From Actinomycetota bacterium (GTDB taxonomy: Bacteria > Actinomycetota > Geothermincolia > Fen-727 > Anoxymicrobiaceae), in NCBI GenBank assembly GCA_043807425.1, contig JAZDFZ010000025.1, positions 1,827 to 65,826 of the forward strand: a DNA stretch of 64,000 nucleotides. Direction: 5' to 3'. Shown in pieces: positions 1,805 through 63,823 of this stretch. Below the pieces are notes generated by a model. That model did not search any database and was not told the origin of the DNA. It saw only the letters and a list, made by a program, of their open reading frames with translations. Position 1 is the first letter of the stretch, and every line of letters starts with the position of its first letter. The position numbers were made by a program, and so were the translations under genes.

Positions 1805-1940
1805 AGGTGGGTGGGTATTTACGGCGGGTTTCTCCCGTCCAAATTCGTTGTGCTCCCGGCGCGGGTCCATTCACCAGGCCGGCCCGGGCCGTGTCCCCCA
1901 CTCAAGGACCGATATCGAAAGACCTTGGGAGGCCGTATCG

Positions 1941-15849: not shown

Positions 15850-16956
15850 TCACTCGACGAGGATTATCCTGGCGTCGTCCGTTATCTCCACCAGCGTGTT
15901 GCTGGTCTCGGGGACACCGCGGTCGTCCAGCCAGCAGCCCGAGTTGACCGCAAGCGTCCCGGAGAGGGGCAGTCGCAGCATCCCGGCCCGGTGGGTGTGC
16001 CCGTAGACGAAGTAGGCCGGCATCTCCTCGCAGAAGTGCTTGAGCAGGGCCTCTATCTCGACCGCGTTCTCCTCGATAGTGGAGCCCCGGTAGTTGGAGG
16101 TGCGGTCGTCGGGCGAGACCCCCCAGTACTTGCCGGTGTTGTTCAACCAGCGGTAGATGCGGTAGCGGTTCTCCACGACCCCGGGTATATAGGTGCTGAG
16201 CATCGCCATCTCGTAGTACGGAGAGATAAAGCGTTCCATGTCGTCCAGGTCGAGACTGCCGGTTCTGTTGAGTATGAAGGTACTGATGCGGGAGTGCTTC
16301 GGCTTCCACAGGGACCGCTCGAACATGCCCAGCAGGTGCCCGTGGGTTAGCAGCGCCGGCCTGCCGCGTACAAGGACCTGGTAAATGGGGTAGGTCATGA
16401 ATAGCGGCACCTGGGCGTCCCTGGGGATGAGTGGCGCGATCGCCGGGCAGTCGCGGGTCATGGGCATGACCAGCTCGGGCATCTCCAGGCTGCCTTCACG
16501 GAGGTTTCGCGCGACCTTCTCCTCGAAATACATGCGGAAGATGTGGTGATCGTGGTTTCCGGGCAGGTACACCATCCTCCGGACGTTCGGCAGCGTGAAC
16601 AGCGCGTCCAGGAGCGGCCCTCCCCTCTTCAGCGCCTCGTCGAACCTCGCGTTCCAGAAGTCGAACAGATCGCCCAGGATGACAAGGTCGTCGATGGGGC
16701 CCAGCTCGGTTATCGCTTCCACCAGCGGCTGGACGCGCTCGGGCTGGGCCAGAAGGTCGTGTGGCTCGCCGAGGTGTACGTCGCTGATGATCACGACGCG
16801 GTCGGCGACCGCCCCGGGCTCCGGCGGCTTGAGGAATGCGCGCGCGCCGGGGATGCGTGAGGCGATAAGCTCTCCGCGGCGCCTCGCCTTCTGAGCGACG
16901 CGCCTGGACGCCTCCACTGCCTTGTACTCCGATATCTTCTTGCGGTTATCGGCCAT
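15850..16956 (-). CDS. metallophosphoesterase (calcineurin-like)
   Basis: SDVHLGEP, ILGDLFDFWN, LPGNHDHH, LTHGHLL, YGHTHRAG. ATG 16956 preferred over the ORF-track TTG at 16974. Confidence 0.85.
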   Translation of the reverse strand: MADNRKKISEYKAVEASRRVAQKARRRGELIASRIPGARAFLKPPEPGAVADRVVIISDVHLGEPHDLLAQPERVQPLVEAITELGPIDDLVILGDLFDFWNARFDEALKRGGPLLDALFTLPNVRRMVYLPGNHDHHIFRMYFEEKVARNLREGSLEMPELVMPMTRDCPAIAPLIPRDAQVPLFMTYPIYQVLVRGRPALLTHGHLLGMFERSLWKPKHSRISTFILNRTGSLDLDDMERFISPYYEMAMLSTYIPGVVENRYRIYRWLNNTGKYWGVSPDDRTSNYRGSTIEENAVEIEALLKHFCEEMPAYFVYGHTHRAGMLRLPLSGTLAVNSGCWLDDRGVPETSNTLVEITDDARIILVE

Positions 16957-16983
16957 GTTCGTCCCTAATCGCAATGACTTGAG

Positions 16984-17107: not shown

Positions 17108-17845
17108 CTAGAGTATCGCGGCCAGGGCCGCGTTTATAGCACCTGAAGCAGGGCAGTCGGGCAGATCGAGGAACGAGAGCTCCTCCTCGTCGAAGCGGCG
17201 TATCGTAGGGTCCTCGGGCACCCAGCCGACCACTTCCAGGTCCGTAGCGGCGCGCACCTGCTCGACCTGACCCTCGTCGGTGACACGGTTGACCAGCAGC
17301 CCGAAACGGGCGCCGGGAGCCATGGTGGCACCAACGGCGCTGATGGTCTCCGCCGTTCGGACGGCCTTCATCGAGGTATCAGCGACCAGGAGCACGTAGT
17401 CCACCGAGCCCAGGACCTTGCGGTTCACCTGCTCTATTCCCGCCTCCGCGTCCACAACTGTCTCGTCGAAGCGAACGGCGAGCCCCTTTATGGCGTCCTT
17501 GAGGATAACGTTCACCTTGCAGTAGCAGCCGGCGTCCTCGGGGCGCCCGATCGAGAGCAGCGCCAGGTTGCCGCGCTCGGTGAGGGCCTCGGCCAGGAGG
17601 TAGTCGATGGAGACGGCCAGGTCGCGCTCGTCCCGGGCCCCCTCCTTGACCTCGTGGATGAGCTCCTTGCGCACATCGTTGAGAGTCCTGCCTGGCTTCA
17701 TGCCCAGGGCCATGGCAAGCCCGCCGGCGGGGTCGGCATCGACTATGAGAGAACGGCGCGAGCCGTCACGCGCCAGCGCCCGTGCGGCCACGGCCGCGAT
17801 CGTGGTTTTGCCGACGCCTCCCTTGCCCGAAACCGCCAGTATCAT
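17108..17845 (-). CDS. CooC/AcsF-type P-loop ATPase (metal-centre maturation family)
   Basis: MILAVSGKGGVGKTT (deviant Walker A), DADPAGGL, and the CooC-type Cys-x-Cys motif GCYCKVN. ATG overlaps the upstream stop (ATGA). Confidence 0.8.
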   Translation of the reverse strand: MILAVSGKGGVGKTTIAAVAARALARDGSRRSLIVDADPAGGLAMALGMKPGRTLNDVRKELIHEVKEGARDERDLAVSIDYLLAEALTERGNLALLSIGRPEDAGCYCKVNVILKDAIKGLAVRFDETVVDAEAGIEQVNRKVLGSVDYVLLVADTSMKAVRTAETISAVGATMAPGARFGLLVNRVTDEGQVEQVRAATDLEVVGWVPEDPTIRRFDEEELSFLDLPDCPASGAINAALAAIL

Positions 17846-18594
17846 TCTTCACCCCCACCCCGACCCTCCCCCCTCGAGGGGGAGGGAGGAATCGTACCTG
17901 CGAGACGGTCGCGTATCTTCTTCAGGTCCATCACCGAGTCGCAGACCTCCTTGTACTCGCAGGTCTCGCAGTCGAAGTTGGCCTCCTGGTACATCTTCAT
18001 CATCGCCTCGATGACCCTCTGCGCTCCCCGGGCAGGCTCGGCGAGCCGCTCCACGTCATCACGTCCCGAGGTGACGAAGAGGACCTCGGCGCACGACACC
18101 GGCTCCACGGTCTTGAGCTCCTCGATCAGCGCGGCCCCGAGGTCCGCGAGCGAGAAACCCCCGTCACGCGCCTCGGTGCTGACCCTGCACCATACGGTCT
18201 GGCGGGACGGCAGGGTGCGCACGGAGAAACCGTCCAGGTGGGTATCGTACACCGCGTCCCTGATGTCGCGGAAGGAGTCGTACTCGTTGTCGAACTCGCC
18301 CCCCACCAGGACGACCTGCCCGAAAGGTATGCTGCCCCCGCCGGCCTCAGCGACGTCAGGCCCGACCAGGGATACGCGGCCTTCCGAGATCTCGGAGGGC
18401 TCGCCCCAGGCCAGGATGGACAGCGAGGCGCCGCTGGGGTTGCCCAGCTCGAGGCCGGTATCCTCCTGCAGGACCAGGCTGTACGCGCGCGGCCAGGGGA
18501 CCTCCCGGCGCCCCAGCGTGCGCAGCCGACCTTCCCCGCTCAACTCATCAACGAACCCTCGTATCTGCTTTATCTGCTCGTCGAATAGGCCCAT
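17842..18594 (-). CDS. truncated acetyl-CoA synthase (AcsB/CdhC) middle-domain-like protein
   Basis: 250 aa from ATG 18594. SEISEGRVSLVGPDVAEAGGGSIPFGQVVLVGG...SRQTVWCRVSTEARDGGFSL...VLFVTSG...ANFDCETCEYKEVC parallels, from memory, AcsB SEITDGKIEVIGPDIDQIPEGSKLPLGILVDIYG...NINWLRVSKDAVAKGF...VTIFTD...TFYSCVLCQSFAPNHVC. Ends before the Ni-binding Cys-Gly-Cys region. Confidence 0.55.
   Translation of the reverse strand: MGLFDEQIKQIRGFVDELSGEGRLRTLGRREVPWPRAYSLVLQEDTGLELGNPSGASLSILAWGEPSEISEGRVSLVGPDVAEAGGGSIPFGQVVLVGGEFDNEYDSFRDIRDAVYDTHLDGFSVRTLPSRQTVWCRVSTEARDGGFSLADLGAALIEELKTVEPVSCAEVLFVTSGRDDVERLAEPARGAQRVIEAMMKMYQEANFDCETCEYKEVCDSVMDLKKIRDRLAGTIPPSPSRGEGRGGGEE
17850..17893 (-). repeat. 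family-1 hairpin repeat, copy 2
   Basis: CACCCCCACCCCGACCCTCCCCCCTCGAGGGGGAGGGAGGAATCG. Encodes the tail PPSPSRGEGRGGGEE of the upstream gene, and its G-rich end supplies the SD for ATG 17845. Confidence 0.9.
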
Positions 18595-18601
18595 GCAACG
18601 G

Positions 18602-19372
18602 TTAGTCCATTCCCGCGAGGAGGGCGGCGCCGAGCGCCGCGGCCAGCCTCGGGTCGTGGGGGAACTCGTAGCAGGTGCCACCCATCTTGCCCTTGATGCG
18701 GTCGTTCACCGCCGCGATGCTCGCCACGCCCCCGGTCAGGGTGTACCTGTCCCCGTCGGAGAAACGTCGCGCCTGCGCGGCCACTATGCTCGAGACAGCG
18801 TCGCACAGCCCGGCCACTATGTCGGCGGGCTGCTCGCCCGCGTTCACGTGCGTTATGACCTCGCTCTCGGCGAACACCCCGCACTGGCTGCTGATGGGCA
18901 CCGGGCTCTGCGCCCCCGACGCCGCCTCGTCGATACGGTCCAGCTCGATGCCGACAGCGTTGCTCATGACCTCGAGGAACCGCCCTGAGCCCGAGGCGCA
19001 CTTGTCGTTGCGCATGAAGTTGATCACGTCGCCGTCCTCGTCGATGAGGATGGAGGTGATGCTCTGCCCGCCGCAGTCCACCACCATGTTTATCTCCGGC
19101 AGGTAGTAGGCCCCGGCCGCCGCCACGCAGGTCACCACGTCCTCCAGGAAGGTCATGCCGCTCAGGAGCTCGGACCCACTCCCGGTCCCCGCGGTCCGCT
19201 CGATCTGCTCGCGTGACACGCCCGCGTCCGCCAGTGTCGTCTCCACCAGGGCGCCGATCTCTTCTGCCACATTCCCGGTGGTCTCCATGATGCCGCTCGC
19301 CAGCACCACGTCGTCGTCCAGGACCACCACCTTGGAGAGCAGGTTGCCCACGTCTACACCCATAGTCTTCAC
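18602..19372 (-). CDS. BadF/BadG/BcrA/BcrD-type activase ATPase (subunit 2)
   Basis: 256 aa. MGVDVGNLLSKVVV, VVDCGGQSITSILID, RNDKCASGSGRFLEVM. The GTG start overlaps the upstream stop (GTGA). Confidence 0.85.
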   Translation of the reverse strand: MKTMGVDVGNLLSKVVVLDDDVVLASGIMETTGNVAEEIGALVETTLADAGVSREQIERTAGTGSGSELLSGMTFLEDVVTCVAAAGAYYLPEINMVVDCGGQSITSILIDEDGDVINFMRNDKCASGSGRFLEVMSNAVGIELDRIDEAASGAQSPVPISSQCGVFAESEVITHVNAGEQPADIVAGLCDAVSSIVAAQARRFSDGDRYTLTGGVASIAAVNDRIKGKMGGTCYEFPHDPRLAAALGAALLAGMD

Positions 19373-20202
19373 GAGGCATCACCCGTCCTGCGGGCCAGCA
19401 CAGCGGCCCCGTAGGCGCCGATCAGTTGCGGGTCGATGTGGGGCGCGATCATCCTCACGTTCAGCATCTTCTCCAGCTCGGACCTCACCGCCACGTTCTT
19501 GGCGACCCCGCCGGTCATCATGACATCTTTCTCCATCCCCACGCGGCGTACCAGCGCCATGACCCGGTCGGCCATGGACTTGGTGATGCCGCTCGCCAGG
19601 TCCGCCCGGTTGACGCCCTTCTGGATGTAGTGCAGGACCTCGGTCTCCGCGAAGATGCTGCACCGCGACGACAGCTCGATTCGGCTGTGGGCCTCTATTG
19701 CCAGCGGTCCAAGGTCCTCGAAGGAGATGCCCAGCGTCCTGCTCATGACCTCCAGAAAGCGCCCCGTCCCCGCCGCGCACTTGTCGTTCATCACGAAGTT
19801 GACCAGGTCGCCGTTCTCGTCCACCCTTATCACCTTGGCGTCCTGGCCCCCGATGTCGATGATGGTCCTCACCTGCGGCGCCAGGGAGAACGCCCCCACC
19901 CCGTGGCAGGAGATCTCGCTCATGTTCTGCTGGGCCAGGCCCTCGGCCTCCACCCGGTCGCGCCCGTAACCGGTGCTCACACAGTAGGTGATGTCGCCCC
20001 AGCCGAGCTTCCTCTCGTCGAGCAGCTCACCCATCACGGTCCGGGCCGAGTCCAGCGGGTTCGACTTCACCCGGATGCTGCGGGCGTCGAACTTCACCCC
20101 GATCGCCTTGAGCATCGGCGTGTGCCCGTCCTCGATGAGCACCGCCTGCGCGGTCAGCGAGCCGACGTCTATCCCCGCAAAACGCCTCGTGTCACTCATC
20201 AT
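19369..20202 (-). CDS. BadF/BadG/BcrA/BcrD-type activase ATPase (subunit 1)
   Basis: 277 aa. AGIDVGSLTAQAVLI, ISCHGVGA, IIDIGGQDAKVIRV, MNDKCAAGTGRFLEVM. Confidence 0.85.
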   Translation of the reverse strand: MMSDTRRFAGIDVGSLTAQAVLIEDGHTPMLKAIGVKFDARSIRVKSNPLDSARTVMGELLDERKLGWGDITYCVSTGYGRDRVEAEGLAQQNMSEISCHGVGAFSLAPQVRTIIDIGGQDAKVIRVDENGDLVNFVMNDKCAAGTGRFLEVMSRTLGISFEDLGPLAIEAHSRIELSSRCSIFAETEVLHYIQKGVNRADLASGITKSMADRVMALVRRVGMEKDVMMTGGVAKNVAVRSELEKMLNVRMIAPHIDPQLIGAYGAAVLARRTGDAS

Positions 20203-21622
20203 CCGCTCCTCGCCGCGCCCCGCGGCCCTTCACCCTTCTCCTCTTGATAACCACGTTCTTCATGAACTCGTCAATGTCGCCCTGCAACCGGGACATGGGG
20301 GTCATGCCCGACAGCCAGGCGTCGCCCTGCAGGCACAACGTGGGCGCCCCTATGCGGTCCATGAGCTCCTTCTGGACTATGGAGATTACGCTCCAGGTCT
20401 GCTTGCAGGCGTGGTGCCCGCAGTAGATCCCGCAGTTGGCGTTCATCTCGCGGCACATGTGCACCGCGTCGTCTATCCAGGCCACGGACATGGAGTCGGC
20501 CCCCATCTGCCTGGTCATCGGGAACCGCCGCGCCGCCTCGCAGATGCCGTCCAGCATCGTCTCCCTGCTGTCGGTCGGTATGGGGTCCGGGAAGAAGAGA
20601 TCCAGCACGTCGAACAGGTAGGAGTAACCCTGCTCCTCCATCCAGTTGAAGAGCCCGTTGTAATCTATGTAGTAGCCGACGTACAGCCATCCCACGCGCG
20701 CCAGCTCTCTTGGAGCGGGGTACTCCCCCGCCTCGAGCCTGCGCCGGGACTCCTCGACCATCACCTCCATACAGCGGACCGCCTCCGGCCTTCCCCACAT
20801 GGTGAAGCGGCACCCGTAGACGAAAAAGCTGAAAAGGTTGGGCACCGGACAGGGCACGTTCTTCTTCAGCTCCCATAGCTGGTAGTGAAGCTCGGCCGCG
20901 CGGTTGCAGTTCTCCACCACGTCCCGGAGGCGCTCCTCGCTTATTTCCTCGCCGATGTACTCCTCGAGGTTGCTCACCAGCCGGTAGAAGTTCTTACGGA
21001 ACTGCTCGCGGCCGCGCTCGGTGTCGTCGACCGGCTTCTCCAGGATGAACTGGGGTATCCCCAGGTAGTGCGCGACGAACTCGTGGATCTTGGAGTTGGC
21101 GTCGCAGGCCCCCGCCGTCGAGCTCACTATCGCGTCCGCCTCGAAGTCCTGGCCGGTGAGCATGCTCCCCAGCTCGATGGTGCTGCTGCTGCAGAGGTGG
21201 TCGGGTATTCCGAGGCCCATGGCGTAGTCCCAGTAGCGATGGCCCTTGCCCTCGATGGCGCCGGCGCCGAGCGAGGTCAGAACCTCGCTGGTGAGCGGGA
21301 CCGCGTTCTCGAAGGCGTGTATCAGCTCGGGCACGAAGTTGAACGGCACCAGGATGACCTTCCTGCCGGTCTCCCTGGCCTCCCTGGCCTCGGCCATCCA
21401 CTCACCTATCATCTTCAGGTAGGCGATGCTGGCGCGGCGGACCCTCGGGTTGAGGAACCCCTCCAGGGTCTCGGCCACGTCGGGCGGCATCAGGGCGATG
21501 ACGCCCTCGCTCTCCTCGTCGGAGAGGTCGTCCGGGATACTCCGCACCATGTCGAGCATCGCGATGACCCGCTCGAAGAGGCCCTCCCGTGACGTCCTGG
21601 GTGCGCCTGCCAGTATCGTCAT
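20192..21622 (-). CDS. benzoyl-CoA reductase / 2-hydroxyacyl-CoA dehydratase family large subunit (copy B)
   Basis: 476 aa, roughly half identical by eye to the 521-aa neighbour. Shared blocks: GIPQFILEKPVDD, NLFS, LFNWMEEQGYSYL, CKQTWSV. Confidence 0.8.
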   Translation of the reverse strand: MTILAGAPRTSREGLFERVIAMLDMVRSIPDDLSDEESEGVIALMPPDVAETLEGFLNPRVRRASIAYLKMIGEWMAEAREARETGRKVILVPFNFVPELIHAFENAVPLTSEVLTSLGAGAIEGKGHRYWDYAMGLGIPDHLCSSSTIELGSMLTGQDFEADAIVSSTAGACDANSKIHEFVAHYLGIPQFILEKPVDDTERGREQFRKNFYRLVSNLEEYIGEEISEERLRDVVENCNRAAELHYQLWELKKNVPCPVPNLFSFFVYGCRFTMWGRPEAVRCMEVMVEESRRRLEAGEYPAPRELARVGWLYVGYYIDYNGLFNWMEEQGYSYLFDVLDLFFPDPIPTDSRETMLDGICEAARRFPMTRQMGADSMSVAWIDDAVHMCREMNANCGIYCGHHACKQTWSVISIVQKELMDRIGAPTLCLQGDAWLSGMTPMSRLQGDIDEFMKNVVIKRRRVKGRGARRGADDE

Positions 21623-23184
21623 AGCATTGCCCCCTCACCCCGACCCTCTCCCCCCAGGGGAGAGGGGGAATCTGGGCGACCCTCTCCCCCGAGGGGAGAG
21701 GGGGAATCGGAGGTCTTTTCCTCCAGCCGCCTGCGGATCTTTCTCTTGCCGGTCCGCTTCTCGGAGACGACGTTCTTGATGAACTCGTCTATCTGCTCCT
21801 GGATGACACCGATGGGGGTGGTGCGCTTCAGCCACGAGTCCCCCTGCAGGACCAGCATCGGCACGCCCGCCCGCTTCATCAGCTCCTCGCGCATTATGGA
21901 GGCCACGCTCCAGGTCTGCTTGCAGGAGTGGTGCCCGGAGTAGATGGCTACGTTCGCTCCCAGGTCCTTCGCGGAGTACAGCGCGTCCTCCAGCCAGCAC
22001 ATGGACATCGATTCGCCCCCGACCTGGTGGGTCATGGGCATGTTCCAGGCTTCCTCGGCCAGCCCACTCACCATGCTGTCGTAGCTGCTGGTGTCGATGG
22101 TGATGGGGAACAGCAGGTCGAGGCCGTCCCCCAGGTAGGAGTATCCCTGCTCCTCCATCCAGTTGAAGAGCGCCGCCAGGTCGAAGTAGTAGGAGGTATA
22201 GGTCAGCAGGCAGCGGGCGATCTCGCGGTCCGCAGGGTACGCGCCCTCCTTCAGGCGCCTCTTGGAGACGTCCACATAGGCCCTGATGGCGTCGATAGCG
22301 GCGTCCGTCCCCCACATCGAGAAACGCGTCCCGTAGGTGTACAGGCTGAACAGGTTGGGGACCGGGTCGGGCACGTTCTTGTGGAGGTCCCACAGCTCCG
22401 CCAGCAGCTCGTTGCAGACGTTCACTTTCTCGCAGGTGCGCCGCAACTTCTCCTCGGTGAGCTCCTCGTCCAGGAACTCCTCCATCCTGTGGATGAGGCC
22501 CAGGTAGTTCCTCCGGTACTGCTCTTTTCCTCGCTCAGAGTCGTCGACCGGCTTCTCCAGGATGAACTGTGGGATGCCGTGATACAGCGAGATGAGCTCG
22601 TGGGTCTTGGCGTTTATGTCGCAGGAACCGGTCGCGGCGTTGATTATCGCCTGCGGCTGGAAGTCGTCGCTGCCCAGCATCGAGCCGATCTCGATGGCGT
22701 TCGACGAGCAGATGTGGTCCGGCAGGCCGATCCCCAGCGCCATGTCGTAGTAGCGCTCGCCCTGCCCTTCCAGGGCGACGACCGCCAGCGAAGAGAGGAC
22801 CTCGCTTGTTATGGGGAACCCCTTGTCGAAGGCGTGGACCAGTTCGGGCGGAAAGCAGAACGGCACCAGGAACGTCTTCCGGCCCTCGTCAGGCGAGCGC
22901 TTCGCCTCGTCCAGCCAGGTGGAAAGGCACTTCATAAAGGCGAGGCTCCCCTCGCGGGCCCGGGGTATGAGCATCGCGGTCAGGGACTTGCGAGAGTCGC
23001 CCGGGAGCACGCCCATCAGACCCTCGACCTCCTCGTCGCTCATCTCGTCCGGGAGCATGTCGATGACCCGGAACAGGCTCGAGACCCTGTCGAAGAGCCC
23101 TTCCTTGGCGTCACCGGGAAGGCCCGGGGCCGCCCGGCCCTCGGGCTTGAGTATCTCGGTGAGAGTCGCGACGGAGCCGCTCAT
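21619..23184 (-). CDS. benzoyl-CoA reductase / 2-hydroxyacyl-CoA dehydratase family large subunit (copy A) with a repeat-encoded tail
   Basis: ATG 23184 overlaps the upstream stop (ATGA). MSGSVATLTEILKPEG... 521 aa, with the last ~30 aa encoded by the tandem repeat. Its stop overlaps the next ATG (ATGA). Confidence 0.8.
   Translation of the reverse strand: MSGSVATLTEILKPEGRAAPGLPGDAKEGLFDRVSSLFRVIDMLPDEMSDEEVEGLMGVLPGDSRKSLTAMLIPRAREGSLAFMKCLSTWLDEAKRSPDEGRKTFLVPFCFPPELVHAFDKGFPITSEVLSSLAVVALEGQGERYYDMALGIGLPDHICSSNAIEIGSMLGSDDFQPQAIINAATGSCDINAKTHELISLYHGIPQFILEKPVDDSERGKEQYRRNYLGLIHRMEEFLDEELTEEKLRRTCEKVNVCNELLAELWDLHKNVPDPVPNLFSLYTYGTRFSMWGTDAAIDAIRAYVDVSKRRLKEGAYPADREIARCLLTYTSYYFDLAALFNWMEEQGYSYLGDGLDLLFPITIDTSSYDSMVSGLAEEAWNMPMTHQVGGESMSMCWLEDALYSAKDLGANVAIYSGHHSCKQTWSVASIMREELMKRAGVPMLVLQGDSWLKRTTPIGVIQEQIDEFIKNVVSEKRTGKRKIRRRLEEKTSDSPSPLGGEGRPDSPSPLGGEGRGEGAML
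21630..21708 (-). repeat. family-1 hairpin repeat, tandem copies 3a and 3b
   Basis: CCCCTCACCCCGACCCTCTCCCCCCAGGGGAGAGGGGGAATC, then GCGACCCTCTCCCCCGAGGGGAGAGGGGGAATCGG. Translated as SDSPSPLGGEGRPDSPSPLGGEGRGEGAML. Confidence 0.9.
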
Positions 23185-24320
23185 GACCTGTCTCCTATCC
23201 TCTCGAGGAACGCCTGGACCCTGGTCCGGATGCGCCCGATGTCCGCCTTCGAGCCGTACTCCTTCTCGAGCTGGAGGACCGGGATGCCCTCCTTCTCGAG
23301 CGAAAGGCGGAGCTGGACGTTGTCCACCCCGTGGACGTCGCAAAACTTGTTGTGCATGACCATCACGCCGTCGGCGCCGGCGCGCTTCACCTCGTCGATG
23401 ACGAAGTCCCGTCTCCTGGGGAAGTCCTCGTACATGCGCGGGCAGAGCATCTCCTTGAGGTAGAGCTCGGCCAGCGCCTCGATGGGCTCCAGGTCAGTCC
23501 GTATTGGCTTCCAGAACGCGCGGGCCCCGTAGCACAGCGAGTCGGTGACCACCAGGCCGCCCACGTCCTCTATCTCACCGATGAGCTCCAGCTCGTCGGT
23601 GGCGGCGCCGCACAGCATGAGGCGGGCCCGGTAGCCGGTGACCCCGGTGCCCGAGCGCTCCTCTATCACGCGGTCGATCAGAGCGAGGTAATCGTCCGCG
23701 GGCATCGCGGAGGCCAGCAGGAACAGCGAGAGCGCCTCGGTCCCCGTGAACGACGGGGCGTCGCCCTCCCTCATGGCGTACACCTCGCGCAGCTTCGATC
23801 GGACGGCCTCCTGCCGCTCGATGGCCTTCTTAAGCTTCGGCTTGGTGACCTTGGTCCCGAAGCCGGCCTCCAGGGCCCTGGCGAAGAGCCTGAGCTCCTC
23901 CGTGTAGTACTCCATCGCCTCGGGCGTGGTCTGGTGCGGCACCTTCACGTAGTGGAAGAACGCCACCGGCTTGACGTACTGCCAGTTCTCGAACATCCCC
24001 CGCAGGTGGTCGCAGCCGTTGGTCTCGATCAGCCCGTCCAGGAAGTCGAAGGTCCCGTCCAGGCCCAGCTGCAGGCACGAGCGGCAGAAGCTGCAGTTGA
24101 AGCGCGCCAGGTGGGCGTCGGCTATCTCGGTGTTGGGGTTGCCCAGGGCCCGGATGCGGTATGGCAGCAGGCCCGCCGCGTCGATTATCTCCGGAGGGGT
24201 CGTCACGCAGCTGTATCCGACGACCTTGCCGCCGCCTTCCTTCCACCGCTTCACGTACTCGTTCTCGACCGCCTCCGATATCCTGACGGCCTCTTCCAGC
24301 GCGCTGGTGGTAACAGTCAT
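23181..24320 (-). CDS. benzoyl-CoA reductase / 2-hydroxyacyl-CoA dehydratase family small subunit (BzdN/BcrC/HgdB-like)
   Basis: 379 aa. VVGYSCVTTPPEIIDAAGLLPYRI, FCRSCLQ, NGCDHLR, LMLCGAA, HNKFCDVHG. Confidence 0.8.
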   Translation of the reverse strand: MTVTTSALEEAVRISEAVENEYVKRWKEGGGKVVGYSCVTTPPEIIDAAGLLPYRIRALGNPNTEIADAHLARFNCSFCRSCLQLGLDGTFDFLDGLIETNGCDHLRGMFENWQYVKPVAFFHYVKVPHQTTPEAMEYYTEELRLFARALEAGFGTKVTKPKLKKAIERQEAVRSKLREVYAMREGDAPSFTGTEALSLFLLASAMPADDYLALIDRVIEERSGTGVTGYRARLMLCGAATDELELIGEIEDVGGLVVTDSLCYGARAFWKPIRTDLEPIEALAELYLKEMLCPRMYEDFPRRRDFVIDEVKRAGADGVMVMHNKFCDVHGVDNVQLRLSLEKEGIPVLQLEKEYGSKADIGRIRTRVQAFLERIGDRS

Positions 24321-24321
24321 G

Positions 24322-25599
24322 TCAAGCTCCTCCAGTGATCTTTCTACCCACGAATGCGACGAACGCCTTTATCGTCTTCCAGAGGTTGCGCGCGAAGATG
24401 CGCGTCATCGCCTGGACCATCCCGGTGCTGGCGAACGCCGCCTCTATCAACCCGTCGGAGACGTTCCGGACCGCGATCTCCATCTGCCCCGAGTCTATCG
24501 AGGATACGAGGCGGCCGAGGTAGTCACCCACCGCGCCGGGGCGGCCCGCGGCCGACGCGTTGAACGCGGCCAGCGACTCGTTTATGCGGCGCGCCACCTG
24601 CTCGGGCTCACACGCCCGGCGGATACCCGGGTGCGCGAGGGCGGCGGCCTTCCAGTCGGCGCCGACCTCCCTGAGGAGCGTCTCCGCGCTCTCGGTGTCA
24701 ACGGCGGCCAGCCCCTTGACGTAGACCTCGCGGTTGAGGCCGGGGTTGGCGGCCCTGAACTTCAGGTCCCAGGTGACATACAGGTCGATCATGCGGCCTA
24801 TCTCCCCTGCCAGCTCGTGCCTGGCGACCTCACCCAGCTTACCCAGCCTTCCCTCGTCCAGCATGGTGAAGTCGGAGAGCATATTGCTCATGGTGCGGGC
24901 GAAGATGTTCATCATCTCGACGCTGCCCCGTGTGAGCTGCACCAGGACCTCGTCGTCCCGTATTGCCAGCTCGGTCAGGACGCCCGCTATGACCTCCAGG
25001 TCCTCGGCCAGGGCGATGGAGGCGTCAGTAGTCGCCTTCACGTCCAGGTTTTCCATCACCCTGTTCATGAAGTCGTTGAACACGGCGCGCGACTTCGGCT
25101 CGTCGCGGCCCAGTATCAGGTTGCCGGCGTGGAGGTCGTTGATCTGCCCGGCGGTCATGGTCAGTATCTTCCCGATCGATTCGGCGTCCAGAGCGCTGAT
25201 GGTATTGAAGAGCGCGGAGGCCAGTATCTCCGGCGGCAGCGCCATCTGGTCGAGCGCGTCGGCCAGTACCGCCAGCAGGCCGTTGACCAGGGGCGGGATG
25301 GTTCCGAGGAGGTTGGCCATGATGACCGGGTTGGTCAGCGCTATCCCCGAGGCGTGCTTGAGCAGCTCCGCCCAGGCCCCGATGAGCTCGCTTGCCGCGA
25401 CACGGACCTTGCCGAAGTCGATGTCCGTCAGGGCGTCGTCCAGCGCCGGGAACATCTGCTTCGCGACGTCGGGGTTCTCCTTGAACGACTCCATGACCGC
25501 CAGCGAGTAGCTGTTGACGGCCTCGGCAAGCGCCTTGCCGTCAAGGCCGGCGGCCCAGGGCTCGAGCATCGGTCGCTTTTCTTCTCCACTTGCCGCCAA
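24322..25599 (-). CDS. all-helical protein of unknown family (long paralog, 425 aa)
   Basis: TTG 25599 with AAGGGGTGAT SD inside the end of the upstream gene. No Cys/His motifs and no clear TM helix. Shares a ~45-aa module with the two upstream genes: PPLVNGLLAVLADALDQMALPPEILASALFNTISALDAESIG. Confidence 0.7.
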   Translation of the reverse strand: MAASGEEKRPMLEPWAAGLDGKALAEAVNSYSLAVMESFKENPDVAKQMFPALDDALTDIDFGKVRVAASELIGAWAELLKHASGIALTNPVIMANLLGTIPPLVNGLLAVLADALDQMALPPEILASALFNTISALDAESIGKILTMTAGQINDLHAGNLILGRDEPKSRAVFNDFMNRVMENLDVKATTDASIALAEDLEVIAGVLTELAIRDDEVLVQLTRGSVEMMNIFARTMSNMLSDFTMLDEGRLGKLGEVARHELAGEIGRMIDLYVTWDLKFRAANPGLNREVYVKGLAAVDTESAETLLREVGADWKAAALAHPGIRRACEPEQVARRINESLAAFNASAAGRPGAVGDYLGRLVSSIDSGQMEIAVRNVSDGLIEAAFASTGMVQAMTRIFARNLWKTIKAFVAFVGRKITGGA

Positions 25600-25605
25600 C
25601 TGGCA

Positions 25606-26208
25606 TCACCCCTTGTTGATCATCTCCGACAGCCTGCGTACCAGCCGTCCGGTCAGGGAAAATACGGTAAGCGCGAGGGAGCGCGCCACGGCCGTCCCGG
25701 CCCGCAGCAGCTCCAGGCCGTCCACCTGCTCGGCCACGTCGCGCAGGAAGTATGGATCGGAGGTGGCGGCGCGGTTCACCCACCGTGCCCCCGTGTTGAT
25801 GAGCCGTGCCAGCGCGCCCGCCGCCGAGTCGCGGGCACCCACCTTCTCCAGGAGCGGGCCGTAGACACGGGGCAACTCGGCGACCTTCTCCATGTCTATC
25901 CGCTCGGCCACCTGCCCGCCGAAGGCCGCTATAAGGTGCGGGGGAAGCCCGTCGAAGACCCGACCCGCCTCGAGGGCCGCCTCCAGCAGGTAGTTGATTA
26001 CTTCCGGTAGGGTCCCCGAGAGGCTGAGCGAGAGGTTTACGTCCTCGAGGAGGGCCGTCCGCACCAGCTCCCGCGCGGCTTCGGGATCAAGCCCCGTAGT
26101 GTTCGTCTTTATGATCTCCAGGAACGCGGGCGTGCGGATGACCTCGCGCAGCACCCGTGCCCCGGATCCCGCCCGGGGGACGGCCTTCGGCTCGCGCGTC
26201 TCCTCCAT
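25606..26208 (-). CDS. all-helical protein of unknown family (short paralog 2, ~200 aa)
   Basis: ATG 26208 overlaps the upstream TGA by 1 nt. MEETREPKAV...RTPAFLEIIK...LDPEAARELVRTALLEDVNLSLSLSGTLPEVINYLLEA...GLPPHLIAAFGGQVAERIDMEKV. Confidence 0.7.
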   Translation of the reverse strand: MEETREPKAVPRAGSGARVLREVIRTPAFLEIIKTNTTGLDPEAARELVRTALLEDVNLSLSLSGTLPEVINYLLEAALEAGRVFDGLPPHLIAAFGGQVAERIDMEKVAELPRVYGPLLEKVGARDSAAGALARLINTGARWVNRAATSDPYFLRDVAEQVDGLELLRAGTAVARSLALTVFSLTGRLVRRLSEMINKG

Positions 26209-26819
26209 CACAGCACCTCCTCGCCTTCACCACCCGCTCCGGCGATGTCCAGCGCCTCCCTGCACGCCCTGGCCAGCGGGCCGACTACGCTCTTCATGAA
26301 CTCCGGGTTCTCCGCGGCGAAGGAGGTTATGCCGCCCGCCAGCCCCCGGGCCAGGTCGGCGACGTTCATCCCTTCGACCGAGGAAAGCCCGCCGGCGAAT
26401 CGTCCCACGAAGGCGCTGGCCGCGTCGGCCAGTGAATCCCCCGCCGCTGCACCGGTCTTTGTGGCAAGGACGGCGATACCGCCCAGGGTCGACCCCAGCC
26501 GTTCGGCGTCCAGGCCGGCCAGCGCCTGTGCGGCGAACTGCCCGAGCAGCGCGGGAGGGAACCCCGCCAGCTGCCGAACCAGCTCGTCGATGGCCACGAT
26601 GCCCGCGTTGAGAAGGTCGGGCGCGGCCGCCATCAGGCCCAGGGAGAACTCCGGATCGGTCCAGAGCAGGGTCCTGACCAGCATCGCCGCGTTCTCAGGG
26701 TCGAGCTCGCCCAGCAGTATCCTCACCGTCTGCTTGAACTTCGGGGTGCGAAGCAGCTCGGCCAGGATCCTGCTGGTCCCTTCGATCGGCCCGTTTCGTG
26801 GAGCTGTCTCTTCGATCAT
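26208..26819 (-). CDS. all-helical protein of unknown family (short paralog 1, 203 aa)
   Basis: ATG 26819. MIEETAPRNG...RTPKFKQTVR...LDPENAAMLVRTLLWTDPEFSLGLMAAAPDLLNAGIVAI...GFPPALLGQFAAQALAGLDAERLG. The upstream part of ORF 26208-27122 is repeat-derived, not coding. Confidence 0.7.
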   Translation of the reverse strand: MIEETAPRNGPIEGTSRILAELLRTPKFKQTVRILLGELDPENAAMLVRTLLWTDPEFSLGLMAAAPDLLNAGIVAIDELVRQLAGFPPALLGQFAAQALAGLDAERLGSTLGGIAVLATKTGAAAGDSLADAASAFVGRFAGGLSSVEGMNVADLARGLAGGITSFAAENPEFMKSVVGPLARACREALDIAGAGGEGEEVL

Positions 26820-26830
26820 GGCCTCACCTT

Positions 26831-26918
26831 TCACCCTGCCCTCTCCCCCGGTGGAGGGGGACAAACAGCGACGGTCACCCCCACCCCGACCCTCCCCCCT
26901 CGAGGGGGAGGGAGTCAG
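26831..26918 (-). repeat. family-1 hairpin repeat, copies 4a (degenerate) and 4b
   Basis: TCACCCTGCCCTCTCCCCCGGTGGAGGGGGACAAAC, then TCACCCCCACCCCGACCCTCCCCCCTCGAGGGGGAGGGAGTCAG. Copy 4b ends exactly at the ACAD stop codon (26915-26917). Confidence 0.85.
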
Positions 26919-28183
26919 AGTGTCTCGCACTCGTAGAACCAGCGGGCGACCTCCATCTGGCCCAGTTGCTTGCCGCCCAGCCACAGCTGGACGATCTTCA
27001 GGTCGCGCCAGTGCTTCTCGATGTCTTGCGCGCGGTCGCTGCCGCGTGGCCCCATGATGTCCAATGCCTTGCCCGAGATCTCCACCGCCTTGTCGCAGGC
27101 GAAGCACTTGTAGGCGCGGCACTTGGCCACGATCTCGTCGGACCAGTTGTCCCCGTAGAGGTCAGGCCGGTCGAGCATGCGTGCCGACTGGTACCCGACA
27201 ATGCGGGTTATCTCTATGTCGCGGGCGATGTCGGCGAGCACGCCTGCGACGTCGTCGTTCTCCTTGAGCGGCTTCCCCCTGAACGTGGTCTCCTCGCAGA
27301 ACTCTTTGAGCAGCTCGAAGATGTTCAGCATGGCCCCGCTGGCGAACGCCACTGACAGCACGTTCCCCCAGGAGACCATCTCCTTGAAGTACAGGAAGTC
27401 CAGCCCGGGCCCGTGCGCGCGGTACCACACCGGGACCCTGACGTTGTCGAACCAGATGTCGGAGTTCTTGTCCGCCGCCATCCCCGCCTTCTGGTACGGC
27501 TTCCCCTGGGTCACGCCCGGGAGGTCCGTCGGGCAGAATATGAAGGCGAAGTCGTCGGGGTCGGTCGAGCCCAGCTTCGTGGTGCAGACCACGCCGAACA
27601 GCTTCGCCGCCCCGCCGCTGTTGGTCGGCCAGAGCTTGTGCCCGCTGATGACCCATTCGTCGCCGTCCAGTATGGCGGTGGTCTGGATGGTGCTGCCCTT
27701 GAGGAGGTCTAGGTTCTCTATGTCGCTGCCGCCCTGCGGTTCGGTCATGGCGTTCGCCGCGAAGACGGGCTCCTCTGTCTCGCAGAACATGGGCGCGAAC
27801 TCGGCGCAGAGCCTGCGGTTCACGTGCGGTTCCTTGCATATCATGAGCAGGGGCCAGTGCATCACCGCGAAGGCGACGCCCATGGCCGAGTCCGCCCGGC
27901 TGATCTCCTCACAGACCCTGAAGCCGCCCACCCCGCCGTAGTCGGAGTGCCCCATCCCGAAGCCCCCCATGTCCTCGGGGAAGAAGAAGCGCTGGAACCC
28001 CAGTTCGCCCATCAGGCTCTTGAACGCCGGCTCGATGGTCTCGTGTTCCTCCCAGTCCTCGTCGAAGCCGCGCCTGAGGGGCATGACCTCCCGCTCGGCC
28101 CAGGCGCGGGTAATCTCCCCGAGGTACCCGTCCAGCGGAGAGAGGTACTCCAGTGGCCTGGTGAAATCGTCTATGCTGCGCAT
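26915..28183 (-). CDS. acyl-CoA dehydrogenase family protein (atypical C-terminal active-site region)
   Basis: 422 aa. AMTEPQGGSDI, WVISGHKLWPTN, IEKHWRDLKIVQLWLGGKQLGQMEVAR. The MCAD-type 'YEGT' Glu position reads L-G-G. Confidence 0.8.
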   Translation of the reverse strand: MRSIDDFTRPLEYLSPLDGYLGEITRAWAEREVMPLRRGFDEDWEEHETIEPAFKSLMGELGFQRFFFPEDMGGFGMGHSDYGGVGGFRVCEEISRADSAMGVAFAVMHWPLLMICKEPHVNRRLCAEFAPMFCETEEPVFAANAMTEPQGGSDIENLDLLKGSTIQTTAILDGDEWVISGHKLWPTNSGGAAKLFGVVCTTKLGSTDPDDFAFIFCPTDLPGVTQGKPYQKAGMAADKNSDIWFDNVRVPVWYRAHGPGLDFLYFKEMVSWGNVLSVAFASGAMLNIFELLKEFCEETTFRGKPLKENDDVAGVLADIARDIEITRIVGYQSARMLDRPDLYGDNWSDEIVAKCRAYKCFACDKAVEISGKALDIMGPRGSDRAQDIEKHWRDLKIVQLWLGGKQLGQMEVARWFYECETL

Positions 28184-28359: not shown

Positions 28360-29601
28360 CTACAGTGCCTTCAGCCCGTAGTAGTGCCGCGCCATGTTAA
28401 CGCTCGCGCAGGTCTCCGGGACCACGTACGTCTCGATGGTCTTCACGTCTCGCCAGTAACGCTCTAGGTTCCACTCCGTCGCGTACCCGGCGGACGCCAT
28501 GAGCTCCATCGCGTTATCGATCCCCTGCATCGCTCCCCGCGAAGCCTGCTTGAAGACCGACGTCGCGGTGGCGAAGATGGGTGGTGAGCCCGCCGGGCCG
28601 TAGAGGTCGGGGCGCGCGAGCATCCGCGCCAGGCTGTAGACCAGAATCCGGATGGCCCCGCACCGGCCGGCGATCTCACCCATCAGGGCGGCGGTGAGCG
28701 GGTTCTCCTTGAACACCTGACCTTTGCCCTTGATCACCCGGGTGTCGCCCCACTCCTTGAGTATCTCGTAGGACGCCAGGAGCGATCCGGCGCACACGGC
28801 CGCGCACGCCATGTAGTACCAGGACAGCAGGCCCAGTGTCCTCTCCTCTCCCTGGAACACCAGCGTTCCGCTCGCGCCGTCGAGGTCGAGGTCGGCGTTG
28901 ATGCTGGGGGCCAGGCCGGTCTTCAGGAACGGCTCGGAGGCCTTCAGCTCCTTCGACGCCGCCGGAACGATCACCAGTGCGGGCGCGCCGTCCAGCCCGC
29001 AGACGACCCCGAACAGGGTGCCGTTGGCTCCGCAGCATTGGGGCCGGACCGAGGTGCCGCTCACGGCGACCAGGGTTCCGGGCTTCATCGAATTGTCTTT
29101 GGCCGTGTTACGTACGGTTGCCGGGTACTCCATGCCGAGGAAGGCCCCCTGGTCCTTCCCGGACCCGTACCCGGGGAGAACGAGCCCGGCGAGGTTGAGC
29201 CCATCCGAGCAGAACAGCGGCGCGATCTCCTCCAGTACGGCGGCTTCGACGTTCGGCTCTATCGCGAACGATGACTGCAGCGCCAGCGTGTTGGCGCAGA
29301 CGAAGCCTATGCCGGTATCGGCGTAGCCGGCCAGCTCCAGGCAGACCGCGGCCGTCACCGCCGCGTCGGGGGTGGACATCCCGCCGCCACCGGACCCGTC
29401 CGGCATCAGCATCGACCCCAGCCCGAGGTCCACCATCAGCTTGCGCATCGCGGGCTCGAGCAGGGCGTCGTAATCCTCCCGGTGCTCCAGCCGCCCGGCC
29501 TTGACCTCCGCCTCCGCCCACTGCGAGACGGTCTGGGCCATCTGCTCGTCGGTCTCCTGCACCCACTCGACGGGAACAGGGAACAGTTCCTGGTACTTCA
29601 T
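28360..29601 (-). CDS. degenerate acyl-CoA dehydrogenase-like protein
   Basis: 413 aa with ACAD-like length and C-terminus (LERYWRDVKTIETYVVPETCASVN). The nucleotide/substrate motif is degenerate (LVLPGYGSGKD instead of TEPxxGSD). GGGGTGAT SD. Confidence 0.6.
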   Translation of the reverse strand: MKYQELFPVPVEWVQETDEQMAQTVSQWAEAEVKAGRLEHREDYDALLEPAMRKLMVDLGLGSMLMPDGSGGGGMSTPDAAVTAAVCLELAGYADTGIGFVCANTLALQSSFAIEPNVEAAVLEEIAPLFCSDGLNLAGLVLPGYGSGKDQGAFLGMEYPATVRNTAKDNSMKPGTLVAVSGTSVRPQCCGANGTLFGVVCGLDGAPALVIVPAASKELKASEPFLKTGLAPSINADLDLDGASGTLVFQGEERTLGLLSWYYMACAAVCAGSLLASYEILKEWGDTRVIKGKGQVFKENPLTAALMGEIAGRCGAIRILVYSLARMLARPDLYGPAGSPPIFATATSVFKQASRGAMQGIDNAMELMASAGYATEWNLERYWRDVKTIETYVVPETCASVNMARHYYGLKAL

Positions 29602-29672: not shown

Positions 29673-30296
29673 CTACCCCCTCACCAGCAGGCCGTTCAAC
29701 TGCAGGTCCACGAACCCGGCGGACACTCCCTCGATGTCGTTCTTCCAAAGCCCCGCGCTCAGGTTGCGCCCCAGGTGTATGAGGCCTCCGACCACGAACT
29801 CGGCGGCCCGTCGCGCGCTCAGGTCGCGCACGATCCCTATGCCCTCACCGAACACGATAAGCCTCTCGAACTGGTCCGTCACTCGCTCCTGGAAGTCTAT
29901 AAACAGCGCGGTCATCTCGTCGTCCACGCCGACAAGCTCGTGCAGGAAGACCTTGGTCATGCTGCGGTTCTTCGCTATGTAGTGAAAGACGTCGGTCATG
30001 ATGGCTGCAAGGCGACGCTCCAGCTCCGCCTCGTCGGGCGGCGGCAGGTCCGGCGCGGTGAATCGCGCGATGGCGTCATCTATGCCGGGCGCGAGTATGG
30101 CGAGGATGTCCTCCATTATTCCGCTCACAGCGGCGGTGAAGACGTCGCGCTTGCTGGAGAAGTAGGAGTAGAAGGTGGACCGGGCGGCCCCGGCCTCGCC
30201 GAGGATGTCCTCGACCGTCGCCTTGTGATAACCGACCTTCGCGAATACCTTCGCTCCGGCATTCACAATCTGGTCGCGCTTGCCGTTCGAGCCCAT
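29673..30296 (-). CDS. TetR/AcrR family transcriptional regulator
   Basis: 207 aa. N-terminal HTH: IVNAGAKVFAKVGYHKATVEDILGEAGAARSTFYSYFSSKRD. Confidence 0.9.
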   Translation of the reverse strand: MGSNGKRDQIVNAGAKVFAKVGYHKATVEDILGEAGAARSTFYSYFSSKRDVFTAAVSGIMEDILAILAPGIDDAIARFTAPDLPPPDEAELERRLAAIMTDVFHYIAKNRSMTKVFLHELVGVDDEMTALFIDFQERVTDQFERLIVFGEGIGIVRDLSARRAAEFVVGGLIHLGRNLSAGLWKNDIEGVSAGFVDLQLNGLLVRG

Positions 30297-49487: not shown

Positions 49488-49514
49488 GAGAAAAGATGGT
49501 TGAGGTGAATTCTC
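49488..49514 (+). repeat. family-4 hairpin repeat, copy D
   Basis: GAGAAaagatggttgaggtgaaTTCTC, between convergent genes. Overlaps the stop codon of the fusion gene at 49513-49515. Confidence 0.65.
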
Positions 49515-53876: not shown

Positions 53877-53913
53877 GGGTAATCGACGCGACTGAATGGA
53901 TTGGGAGGCGGTC

Positions 53914-63778: not shown

Positions 63779-63823
63779 TACCCCTCACCCCGACCCTCTC
63801 CCCCAAGGGGAGAGGGAGAATCA
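63778..63823 (-). repeat. family-1 hairpin repeat, copy 5
   Basis: CTACCCCTCACCCCGACCCTCTCCCCCAAGGGGAGAGGGAGAATCAG. Fills the gap between the stop at 63824-63826 and GTG 63778 exactly. Confidence 0.9.

Follow-up and report, generated by a model that had tools for sequence, protein, structure and literature searches.

What does a homolog of one part of acetyl-CoA synthase (ACS), paired with a CooC-type ATPase, do at the end of an operon for enzymes related to class I benzoyl-CoA reductases (BCRs)? This question is raised by a 64,000-nt stretch, referred to below as the window, of contig JAZDFZ010000025.1 (GCA_043807425.1) from an Actinomycetota bacterium of the Anoxymicrobiaceae. A preliminary description of the window had presented a 250-residue protein, designated here mini-ACS, as a truncated ACS-like protein coupled to a CooC/AcsF-type ATPase, and had suggested that both had been recruited to a different metalloenzyme encoded upstream. 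We find that mini-ACS belongs to a natural family of stand-alone proteins and that its gene is paired with that of the ATPase, next to BCR-like genes, in genomes of at least five phyla. The answer that we tentatively favor is that the two proteins form an accessory pair, derived from ACS and AcsF, that would mature or service the metal clusters of class-I-BCR-like enzymes of the BzdNO/DCCP type (DCCP, double-cubane cluster protein).

The Pfam model PF03598 (CdhC), which has a gathering score of 24 bits, matched residues 43-162 of mini-ACS with 42.8 bits (E 6.5e-11). A phmmer search of the PDB with mini-ACS as the query retrieved ACS/CdhC chains only (E 2e-8), residues 44-197 of the query corresponding to residues 335-489 of the ACS of C. 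hydrogenoformans, i.e. to its middle (A2) domain. In the HMMER alignment, SEISEGRVSLVGPDV was paired with pdeiedgkvevigpdi, IPFGQVV with lpigivv, and VWCRVS with tWvRiS; the same blocks had previously been aligned by eye. A profile built from 33 diverse members of the mini-ACS family matched ACS/CdhC in the PDB at E 1e-20, with an alignment reaching the Cys motif, in agreement with the earlier claim that the similarity extends up to and into the A-cluster domain. An AlphaFold2 model of mini-ACS built on 23 homologs (pLDDT 85.4, pTM 0.83), in which the final 16 residues were disordered and the Cys region was weaker (pLDDT ~70), was compared with the PDB by Foldseek. All 22 matches at E<=1e-3 were ACS/CdhC structures (best match at E 4e-11 and TMq 0.58; TMq 0.55-0.59 over 170-198 columns for the whole set), and the first non-ACS match appeared at E 0.17. 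The scores obtained with the NCBIfam ACS models, 36-48 bits versus cut-offs of 356-809, were below the equivalog level. No match to PF19436, the C-terminal A3 domain, was detected in mini-ACS by the Pfam scan, and the Cys-Gly-Cys Ni motif was absent downstream of the C-x2-C-x5-C motif both from the mini-ACS sequence and from the family alignments. Mini-ACS is homologous to one portion of ACS but is not itself an ACS. The domain scan of ~50 open reading frames (ORFs) of the window revealed neither a carbon monoxide dehydrogenase (CODH; Prismane) domain nor a further ACS domain, as anticipated in the preliminary description.

The C-x2-C-x5-C motif of the window protein comprises C209, C212, and C218. 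In the profile alignment, the C-x2-C of the family falls on ySCllCqs of the C. hydrogenoformans ACS and on yGCtlCqs of the M. thermophila CdhC. In published ACS structures, the aligned cysteines are ligands one and two of the cubane of the A-cluster, and the second is the cysteine bridging to the proximal Ni. The third cysteine of the motif lies outside the alignment to ACS and corresponds to the third ligand by spacing only (x5 versus x8). The proposal that mini-ACS has retained the first three ligands is thus upheld by alignment for two of them and by spacing for the third. The motif was conserved in 324 of the 328 members that were collected in the length range of 200-320 residues. Members of the family end at a median of 20 residues beyond the motif (the window protein ends 32 residues beyond the third cysteine) and none of the 328 reaches the fourth A-cluster cysteine or a Cys-Gly-Cys. 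Residues E49, L50, G51, G78, G122, W135, C209, C212, and C218 were invariant across members displaying 28-53% identity with the window protein. The statement that only three cysteines were kept holds for the family motif and requires an amendment for the window clade, in which C136 (of WCR) is also invariant (23-sequence alignment). Another subfamily has an additional cysteine 3-7 residues upstream of the motif, and a fourth cysteine is absent from 82 family members. With a motif shared by 324 of 328 members and a fourth cysteine that is variable or absent, the sequences carry the signature expected for a site that is held by three cysteines and has one position open.

Proteins of this size are widespread. 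A search of 5.8 billion proteins returned 185 relatives, the best 120 of which were all 197-270 residues in length. When 1.84 billion cluster representatives (50% identity) were searched with a profile, 157 sequences scored at E<=1e-30, nearly all of them full-length (220-280 residues). The dN/dS ratio of mini-ACS was 0.19 in the comparison with its 91%-identical ortholog in locus L004. The census of ~240-residue homologs and this ratio indicate that mini-ACS belongs to a natural stand-alone family under purifying selection and is no remnant, and exclude a broken remnant of an acs operon, one of the conditions that had been named as refuting the preliminary reading. Database labels for the family are hypothetical protein, 'carbon monoxide dehydrogenase', 'CODH/ACS beta subunit', or 'CO dehydrogenase/acetyl-CoA synthase beta subunit'.

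The C-terminal end of the window protein requires a separate comment. The tail TIPPSPSRGEGRGGGEE is encoded within a GC-rich element resembling repetitive extragenic palindromic (REP) sequences, an exact 32-nt copy of which is located at 26875-26906. The core of the element, GGAGAGGGTCGGGGTGAGGG, is partly palindromic (CCCTCGAGGGGGGAGGG), and the 20-nt core is present in five minus-strand copies in the window for 0.3 expected. It had been correctly noted that mini-ACS ends in repeat-derived sequence before the fourth cysteine and the Cys-Gly-Cys; the implied truncation did not stand, since 324 of 328 homologs are alike. The repeat merely lengthens a naturally variable tail by about 16 residues. 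Truncation caused by the repeat was rejected, as orthologs devoid of it terminate at nearly the same position. A comparable IPPSPLREGRGGGE tail closes the 91%-identical ortholog (P0002), and several ORFs finish with PSPxxGEGRGxG, a translation of the repeat.

The second member of the pair overlaps mini-ACS by an ATGA stop/start sequence (17842-17845), as previously reported. The characterized proteins of this type, CooC and AcsF, use ATP to insert Ni into CODH and ACS, and the attribution of the ATPase to this type, initially made from its GKGGVGKT and GCYC motifs, was confirmed by comparisons with the PDB. The best solved relative was CooC1 (3kje), both with the single sequence (E 2e-12) and with a profile built from 15 orthologs, which matched CooC1 over its full length (93 bits, E 1.5e-25). 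The next match of the profile (E 9e-14) covered the P-loop only, and the ArsA, MinD, ParA, FleN, and BchL-type ATPases did not exceed 55 bits, for the most part with matches confined to the P-loop. The CYC of the ATPase was aligned with the metal-binding CYC of CooC1 (sqCYCren), and the Walker A motif GKGGVGKT, the CxC (GCYC), and switch II were invariant across 75 orthologs. The dN/dS ratio was 0.07 in the comparison with the ortholog of locus L004.

The phylogenetic position of the ATPase was evaluated with a neighbor-joining tree (245 columns, 100 bootstraps) including 29 ATPases of the module, seven canonical genes of the CooC family taken from genuine acs operons, CooC1, and a single MinD as the root, the sequences of CooC1 and MinD being reconstructed from printed PDB alignments. 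The canonical genes were designated by position only: four located inside the acs operon after the RACo gene were considered as AcsF-type and three located upstream of FTHFS-CODH genes as CooC-type. The module ATPases were monophyletic in 99 of the 100 replicates and formed a clade of their own beside the canonical ones. They joined the AcsF-type clade in 55 replicates and the CooC-type clade in 7, with mean identities of 33% to AcsF-type, 26% to CooC-type, and 26% to MinD sequences. With thin sampling and a simple method, the tree weakly suggests that the module ATPases are a CooC-family clade nearest to the acs-operon (AcsF-type) paralogs, and provides a lead that the ACS/AcsF partnership may have been co-opted as a unit. 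The seven canonical genes were found on the contigs of short frameshifted pieces, which were all that a search with an ACS fragment returned. The ACS 'fragments' of loci L092-L096 are not natural short ACS proteins; they derive from acs operons that are riddled with frameshifts in metagenomes assembled from long reads (ERZ250395xx-ERZ250396xx).

The pair closes a tightly packed string of minus-strand genes encoding, in this order, a TetR regulator, two acyl-CoA dehydrogenases (ACADs), three Cys-free helical proteins, three HGD-D proteins (HGD1 to HGD3), two ATPases of the BcrAD/BadFG type, mini-ACS, and the CooC-like ATPase (Table 1). Several of the junctions are ATGA overlaps, and translational coupling is tight from HGD1 to the CooC-like ATPase; the BcrD/BadG-type gene ends 7 nt ahead of the start of mini-ACS. 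HGD1 matched BzdN (8s02_B) at E 1.7e-55, with cysteines aligned to C36, C73, C100, C263, C293, and C327. In BzdN, the ligands of the [8Fe-9S] double cubane are six cysteines, whereas the active-site [4Fe-4S] cluster of BzdO is held by three cysteines and a water ligand (PMC11971306). The six cysteines of HGD1 were retained in 58-61 of the 61 orthologs that accompany the pair. HGD2 and HGD3, more remote members of the HGD-D family, each have exactly three universally conserved cysteines (kept in 12 of 12 orthologs of HGD2; C144, C173, and C406 in 58 of 58 orthologs of HGD3). The two BcrAD proteins matched PF01869 with 139 and 212 bits and, as read from their sequences, carry the usual cluster cysteines (NDKC..G.G and S.QC/SRC). 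The operon is accordingly predicted to encode a Bzd-type, class-I-BCR-like, ATP-dependent radical enzyme, and the substrate of this enzyme is probably a CoA ester because of the ACAD genes and of the BzdN- and BzdO-like subunits. The catalytic set of three subunits, two BzdO-like and one BzdN-like (20192-24320), is unusual beside BzdNO or BcrBC.

A survey based on one genome per GTDB species identified 113 relatives, and the best 80 loci were compared by searching the window proteins against all of their ORFs. Among the 73 loci with enough downstream sequence, the CooC-like gene directly followed mini-ACS in 72, starting between -4 and +243 nt after its stop codon (median 13); in the single exception (L057), two BcrAD genes are located between mini-ACS and the ATPase. 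Among the 50 informative loci, for which at least 6 kb of upstream sequence was available, BcrAD genes were found nearby in 45 and HGD-D genes in 44, and the pair had neither within 6-8 kb in 4. The association with upstream HGD/BCR-type genes, first proposed from the window, holds in about 90% of these loci. The associated enzymes always include a BzdN-like six-Cys subunit, together with one or two BzdO-like three-Cys subunits, and CODH/ACS genes were not found beside the pair in the annotated related loci. The best 80 loci belonged to Actinomycetota (Geothermincolia, Solincola, and Anoxymicrobiaceae), Bacillota (Syntrophomonadaceae and Dethiobacteria), Desulfobacterales, Smithella/Syntrophaceae, Desulfomonilia, Spirochaetota, and Leptospirales. 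A distant four-Cys subfamily occurs in the same five-gene module (HGD-D, HGD-D, BcrAD, mini-ACS, and CooC-like), for example in the cultured Geobacter sp. FeAm09 (CP042466, L084). Among the best 80 loci, a full bacterial-type operon (ACADs, three HGD-D, two BcrAD, and the pair; ~41% identity) was also present in a bin labelled 'Methanobacteriota archaeon' (L034, JAUWIL010000002.1), which could reflect misbinning or horizontal transfer.

The composition of the neighborhood varied. Within one conserved neighborhood of the Solincola type, the pair was found, depending on the genome, with two HGD-D genes, with BcrAD, or alone. The pair is the most stable unit of the neighborhood, since these genomes lose HGD-D or BcrAD genes and keep it. 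One locus (L091) combined HGD-D genes and the pair in the absence of BcrAD, and several had BcrAD, mini-ACS, and the CooC-like gene only, with no HGD-D nearby. Conversely, many Desulfobacterales loci contain a second HGD-D, HGD-D, BcrAD set directly 3' of the CooC-like gene and a single pair; such second sets were detected in L054, L062-L064, L068, L070, L075, L077-L080, L082, and L083 (Desulfobacterales, Spirochaetota, and Smithellaceae). A motif scan identified an ORF for a small 2x[4Fe-4S] ferredoxin in only 4 of the 80 loci and none in the operon of the window. In a mirror-tree comparison of the 16 loci holding all six proteins, all correlations were in the range of 0.67-0.87, too close to one another to discriminate.

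The homologies, the conservation of the motifs, the translational coupling, and the synteny are established by these data, and the synteny makes it reasonable to suppose that the pair was recruited to a different metalloenzyme. In the accessory role that we favor, a pair descended from the ACS/AcsF partnership would have been taken over by class-I-BCR-like enzymes. The three cysteines of mini-ACS would hold a site-differentiated Fe-S cluster, or a metal adjoining one, and mini-ACS would interact with the ATPase. The latter, as a CooC-type dimer whose CxC would form a metal site, would spend ATP to load, remodel, or pass on the metal center. The target of the module would be the neighboring enzyme, of which the pair may mature or repair the [8Fe-9S] double cubane with its six cysteines, the [4Fe-4S] cluster with three cysteines and an open site, or both. 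This role is favored because a single pair is present even with two enzyme sets, because the pair occupies the 3' position in the operon and persists without local HGD-D or BcrAD genes, and because it recalls the pattern of an NTPase plus a metallochaperone of Ni-enzyme maturation. Pairs of an NTPase and a small metallochaperone (HypB/HypA, UreG/UreE, and CooC/CooJ/CooT) are the usual pattern for assembly of Ni centers.

Several observations weigh against an accessory role. Metal binding by either protein is a prediction based on motifs, and we know of no characterized or canonical bzd, bcr, mbd, or hgd operon that contains the mini-ACS/CooC-like pair. The sister grouping with AcsF-type ATPases is weak (55/100) and its sampling sparse. 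Neither a Ni transporter nor a His-rich chaperone was found among the ~50 ORFs of the window that were scanned. The evolutionary distances of mini-ACS were correlated with those of HGD1, HGD3, and BcrAD2 (r ~0.81) slightly more closely than with those of the CooC-like ATPase (0.70), values roughly as compatible with a subunit as with a chaperone. DCCP was reportedly produced with its cluster in a heterologous host in the original report on this protein. Heterologously produced BzdNO had both of its clusters (PMC11971306), and the two cases together imply that such clusters do not generally depend on a dedicated maturase.

The main alternative explanation, which we consider possible although somewhat unlikely, is that mini-ACS is a permanent redox subunit of the enzyme or a dedicated electron donor to BcrAD, replacing the ferredoxin of classical BCR operons, and that the ATPase matures mini-ACS only, as AcsF does for ACS. 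Mini-ACS would then be, with the same limited likelihood, a [4Fe-4S] protein possibly containing an extra metal. In addition to the co-variation with BcrAD2, HGD1, and HGD3, this explanation accounts for the scarcity of ferredoxin ORFs, for the loci reduced to BcrAD, mini-ACS, and the CooC-like gene, for the insertion of two BcrAD genes between mini-ACS and the ATPase in L057, and for the tight translational coupling from HGD1 through the ATPase. However, a permanent subunit or donor does not readily explain why loci with two enzyme sets make do with a single pair, why the pair persists in 4 of 50 loci that have neither BcrAD nor HGD-D within 6-8 kb, or why L091 has HGD-D and the pair but no BcrAD. 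The scarcity of ferredoxin genes says little, as operons for 2-hydroxyacyl-CoA dehydratases likewise lack them, and a protein that only carries electrons would hardly be expected to use a 240-residue A2 domain as its scaffold.

A bolder form of the accessory role, in our judgment unlikely, is that the pair is a dedicated ATP-driven machine assembling the complex Fe-S cofactors of the BCR/DCCP superfamily, by fusion or delivery of cubanes or by addition of a heterometal such as Ni. A dimer of mini-ACS would present 2 x 3 cysteines, as many as ligate an [8Fe-9S] double cubane, and could hold two open-site cubanes that the CooC-type ATPase would fuse or deliver. Alternatively, the ATPase might add a heterometal such as Ni, giving an unrecognized Ni-Fe-S variant of BCR-like enzymes. 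If the pair were such a machine, part of the logic of A-cluster assembly in ACS would have been reused outside C1 metabolism.

Slightly less probable still, and rather improbable overall, is a non-redox role in which mini-ACS is an adaptor, e.g. a CoA-thioester-binding or docking domain with a structural Zn on its Cys motif, and the ATPase a MinD/ParA-like factor for assembly or positioning. The A2 domain is cofactor-free in ACS, and the middle domain of ACS has been implicated in CoA binding. The CxC of CooC also binds Zn in crystals (3kje series), and the substrates of the neighboring enzyme, judging from the ACAD genes and the BzdN- and BzdO-like subunits, are probably acyl- or aryl-CoA esters. 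Against this role, the position aligned with the Trp of ACS that we take to be linked to CoA is S or M in the mini-ACS family, an observation of use as a lead only, and the invariant residues (ELG, GPD, W-x-R, and the three cysteines) exclude that position. The ATPase matched CooC over its full length (93 bits versus at most 55 bits for MinD, ParA, and ArsA) and CxC is kept in all of its 75 orthologs.

We regard as very unlikely that the pair serves a canonical CODH/ACS encoded elsewhere in the genome, the link to BCR-like genes being due to chance or co-regulation. Both proteins do come from CODH/ACS-associated families, and the Geothermincolia and Solincola lineages, which have many matches, are reported to have the Wood-Ljungdahl pathway. 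Chance is opposed by the BcrAD/HGD-D synteny, which recurs in about 90% of informative loci in Actinomycetota, Bacillota, Desulfobacterota, Spirochaetota, and Geobacter, by the lack of CODH/ACS genes beside the pair in annotated loci, and by the true acs operons, which carry their own distinct CooC/AcsF paralogs. Finally, a decaying acsB fragment cut off by insertion of the repeat, to which only the termination of the ORF within the element points, was rejected with near certainty in view of the ~240-residue architecture common to 324 of 328 homologs, the 157 representatives at E<=1e-30, the dN/dS of 0.19, the residues invariant across phyla, and the confident AlphaFold2 fold.

Table 1. Features of the mini-ACS operon and of its surroundings in the window.
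Feature	Coordinates	Strand	Basis or remark
TetR-family regulator, head of the string	29673..30296	-	Domain scan
Acyl-CoA dehydrogenase family protein	28360..29601	-	Domain scan
Acyl-CoA dehydrogenase family protein	26915..28183	-	Domain scan
Helical protein, function unassigned	26208..26819	-	M102 of the listed ORF, which follows a repeat copy, is the likely start
Helical protein, paralog of the 26208..26819 product	25606..26211	-	
Cys-free helical protein	24322..25599	-	Conserved upstream of HGD-D genes across phyla
HGD1, BzdN-like HGD-D subunit	23181..24320	-	Six [8Fe-9S] Cys: C38, C76, C103, C263, C293, C327 (predicted)
HGD2, BzdO-like HGD-D subunit	21619..23184	-	C131, C160, C393 (numbering of the 21619-23100 query); start 23184 chosen for the ATGA overlap with the upstream stop
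HGD3, BzdO-like HGD-D subunit	20192..21622	-	Exactly three conserved Cys: C144, C173, C406
BcrA/BadF/BzdQ-type ATPase, second subunit of the ATP-dependent electron-activating module	19369..20202	-	
BcrD/BadG-type ATPase (activase family)	18602..19372	-	Cluster Cys in NDKCASGSG and SSQCGVFAE
Mini-ACS, 250-aa stand-alone homolog of the ACS A2 domain	17842..18594	-	Pfam, PDB profile, Foldseek, census, dN/dS
GC-rich REP-like repeat, last ~16 codons of the mini-ACS ORF	17849..17880	-	Not part of the conserved protein
CooC-family P-loop ATPase, 245 aa	17108..17845	-	GKGGVGKT, DADP, GRPEDAGCYC, DAEAGIEQVNR
Calcineurin-like phosphoesterase	15850..16974	-	3' of the CooC-like gene in Actinomycetota loci only
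Repeat core copies	11972-11991, 17852-17871, 21632-21651, 26878-26897, 63782-63801	- (all)	Gene junctions

The three Ala/Leu-rich, Cys-free, and apparently all-helical proteins (24322-26819), of which the two of ~200 residues are paralogs, had no Pfam or NCBIfam match. Since their relatives are encoded upstream of HGD-D genes in many loci across phyla, they are probably part of the enzyme system. The best promoter-like site of the region (30384-30356) is located upstream of the TetR gene, and the promoter and terminator scan revealed nothing else above the shuffled background. A weak promoter-like site is present in the 133-nt gap preceding the phosphoesterase gene, which may have its own promoter; this gene follows the CooC-like gene, for example, in L003-L012, L030, and L031, and does not in other phyla. 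Elsewhere in the window, positions 1848-7883 (plus strand) encode a 2011-residue protein with nine IPT/TIG domains and a DUF5719 region, and the related locus L003 contains a gene for a 1003-residue DUF5719 protein downstream of the operon. A non-homologous end-joining trio (ATP-dependent DNA ligase, Ku, and LigD primase-polymerase) is encoded at 52878-55619 (plus strand), and an 884-residue fusion of an FGGY carbohydrate kinase and a D-isomer-specific 2-hydroxyacid dehydrogenase at 49513-52167 (minus strand).

Full-text searches of the literature found no description of the mini-ACS family or of the mini-ACS/CooC-like module. The sole mention encountered, a remark made in 2015, concerns a partial PF03598 domain standing alone in UniProt B8FZT4 (PMC4443539), and the paper describing the structure of BzdNO names no mini-ACS/CooC-like factor (PMC11971306). 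Each of the two domains is a member of a known family, and the novelty lies in the stand-alone architecture, in the fixed pairing, and in the BCR-like context. Class I BCRs, 2-hydroxyacyl-CoA dehydratases, and double-cubane proteins catalyze reactions that are among the most strongly reducing in biology, and the building, repair, and electron supply of their clusters in vivo are largely obscure. A two-gene module derived from ACS and CooC/AcsF at the end of BzdNO-like operons in at least five phyla is a testable candidate for cluster assembly or electron supply. The middle domain of ACS exists as an independent evolutionary unit, which bears on how ACS was assembled, and the client range of CooC-type ATPases would extend past CODH/ACS. 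The CODH/ACS labels attached to the mini-ACS family can yield false Wood-Ljungdahl calls in metagenome surveys.

The module can be compared with several known systems. Mini-ACS shares with ACS (AcsB/CdhC) the fold, the ELG, GPD, and W-x-R blocks, and the C-x2-C aligned with the first two [4Fe-4S] ligands. In contrast to ACS (460-730 residues), mini-ACS (~240 residues) lacks the A1 and A3 domains, the fourth cluster cysteine, and the Cys-Gly-Cys Ni site, and the third cysteine follows at a spacing of x5 instead of x8. Mini-ACS is encoded with BCR-like genes, whereas ACS is encoded with CODH, CoFeSP (CdhD/E), and methyltransferase genes. The module ATPase shares with CooC1 and AcsF full-length homology, the deviant Walker A motif GKGGVGKT, the CxC, and the switch II motif D-x-E/G-AG. 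Unlike them, it belongs to a separate clade (26-33% identity to canonical paralogs) and was never found beside CODH/ACS in the loci examined. AcsF adjoins ACS genes, and the module ATPase likewise adjoins the gene for an ACS-derived protein.

The operon of the window shares with the BzdNOPQ (PDB 8s02), DCCP, and DCCP-R systems a six-Cys BzdN-like subunit, three-Cys BzdO-like subunits, and two BcrAD-type ATPases. The window operon encodes two BzdO-like paralogs in place of the single one of the Bzd type and, unlike Bzd systems, has no ferredoxin gene and contains genes for three Cys-free helical proteins and two ACADs upstream. With respect to the Ni-enzyme systems HypB/HypA, UreG/UreE, and CooC/CooJ/CooT, the partner of the ATPase differs in being an ACS domain unrelated to HypA, UreE, CooJ, or CooT and devoid of a His-rich region, and the enzyme family of the putative client is not known to contain Ni. 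The pair has in common with these systems a SIMIBI-class NTPase whose gene adjoins that of a small partner carrying cysteines, where the operon for a complex metalloenzyme ends.

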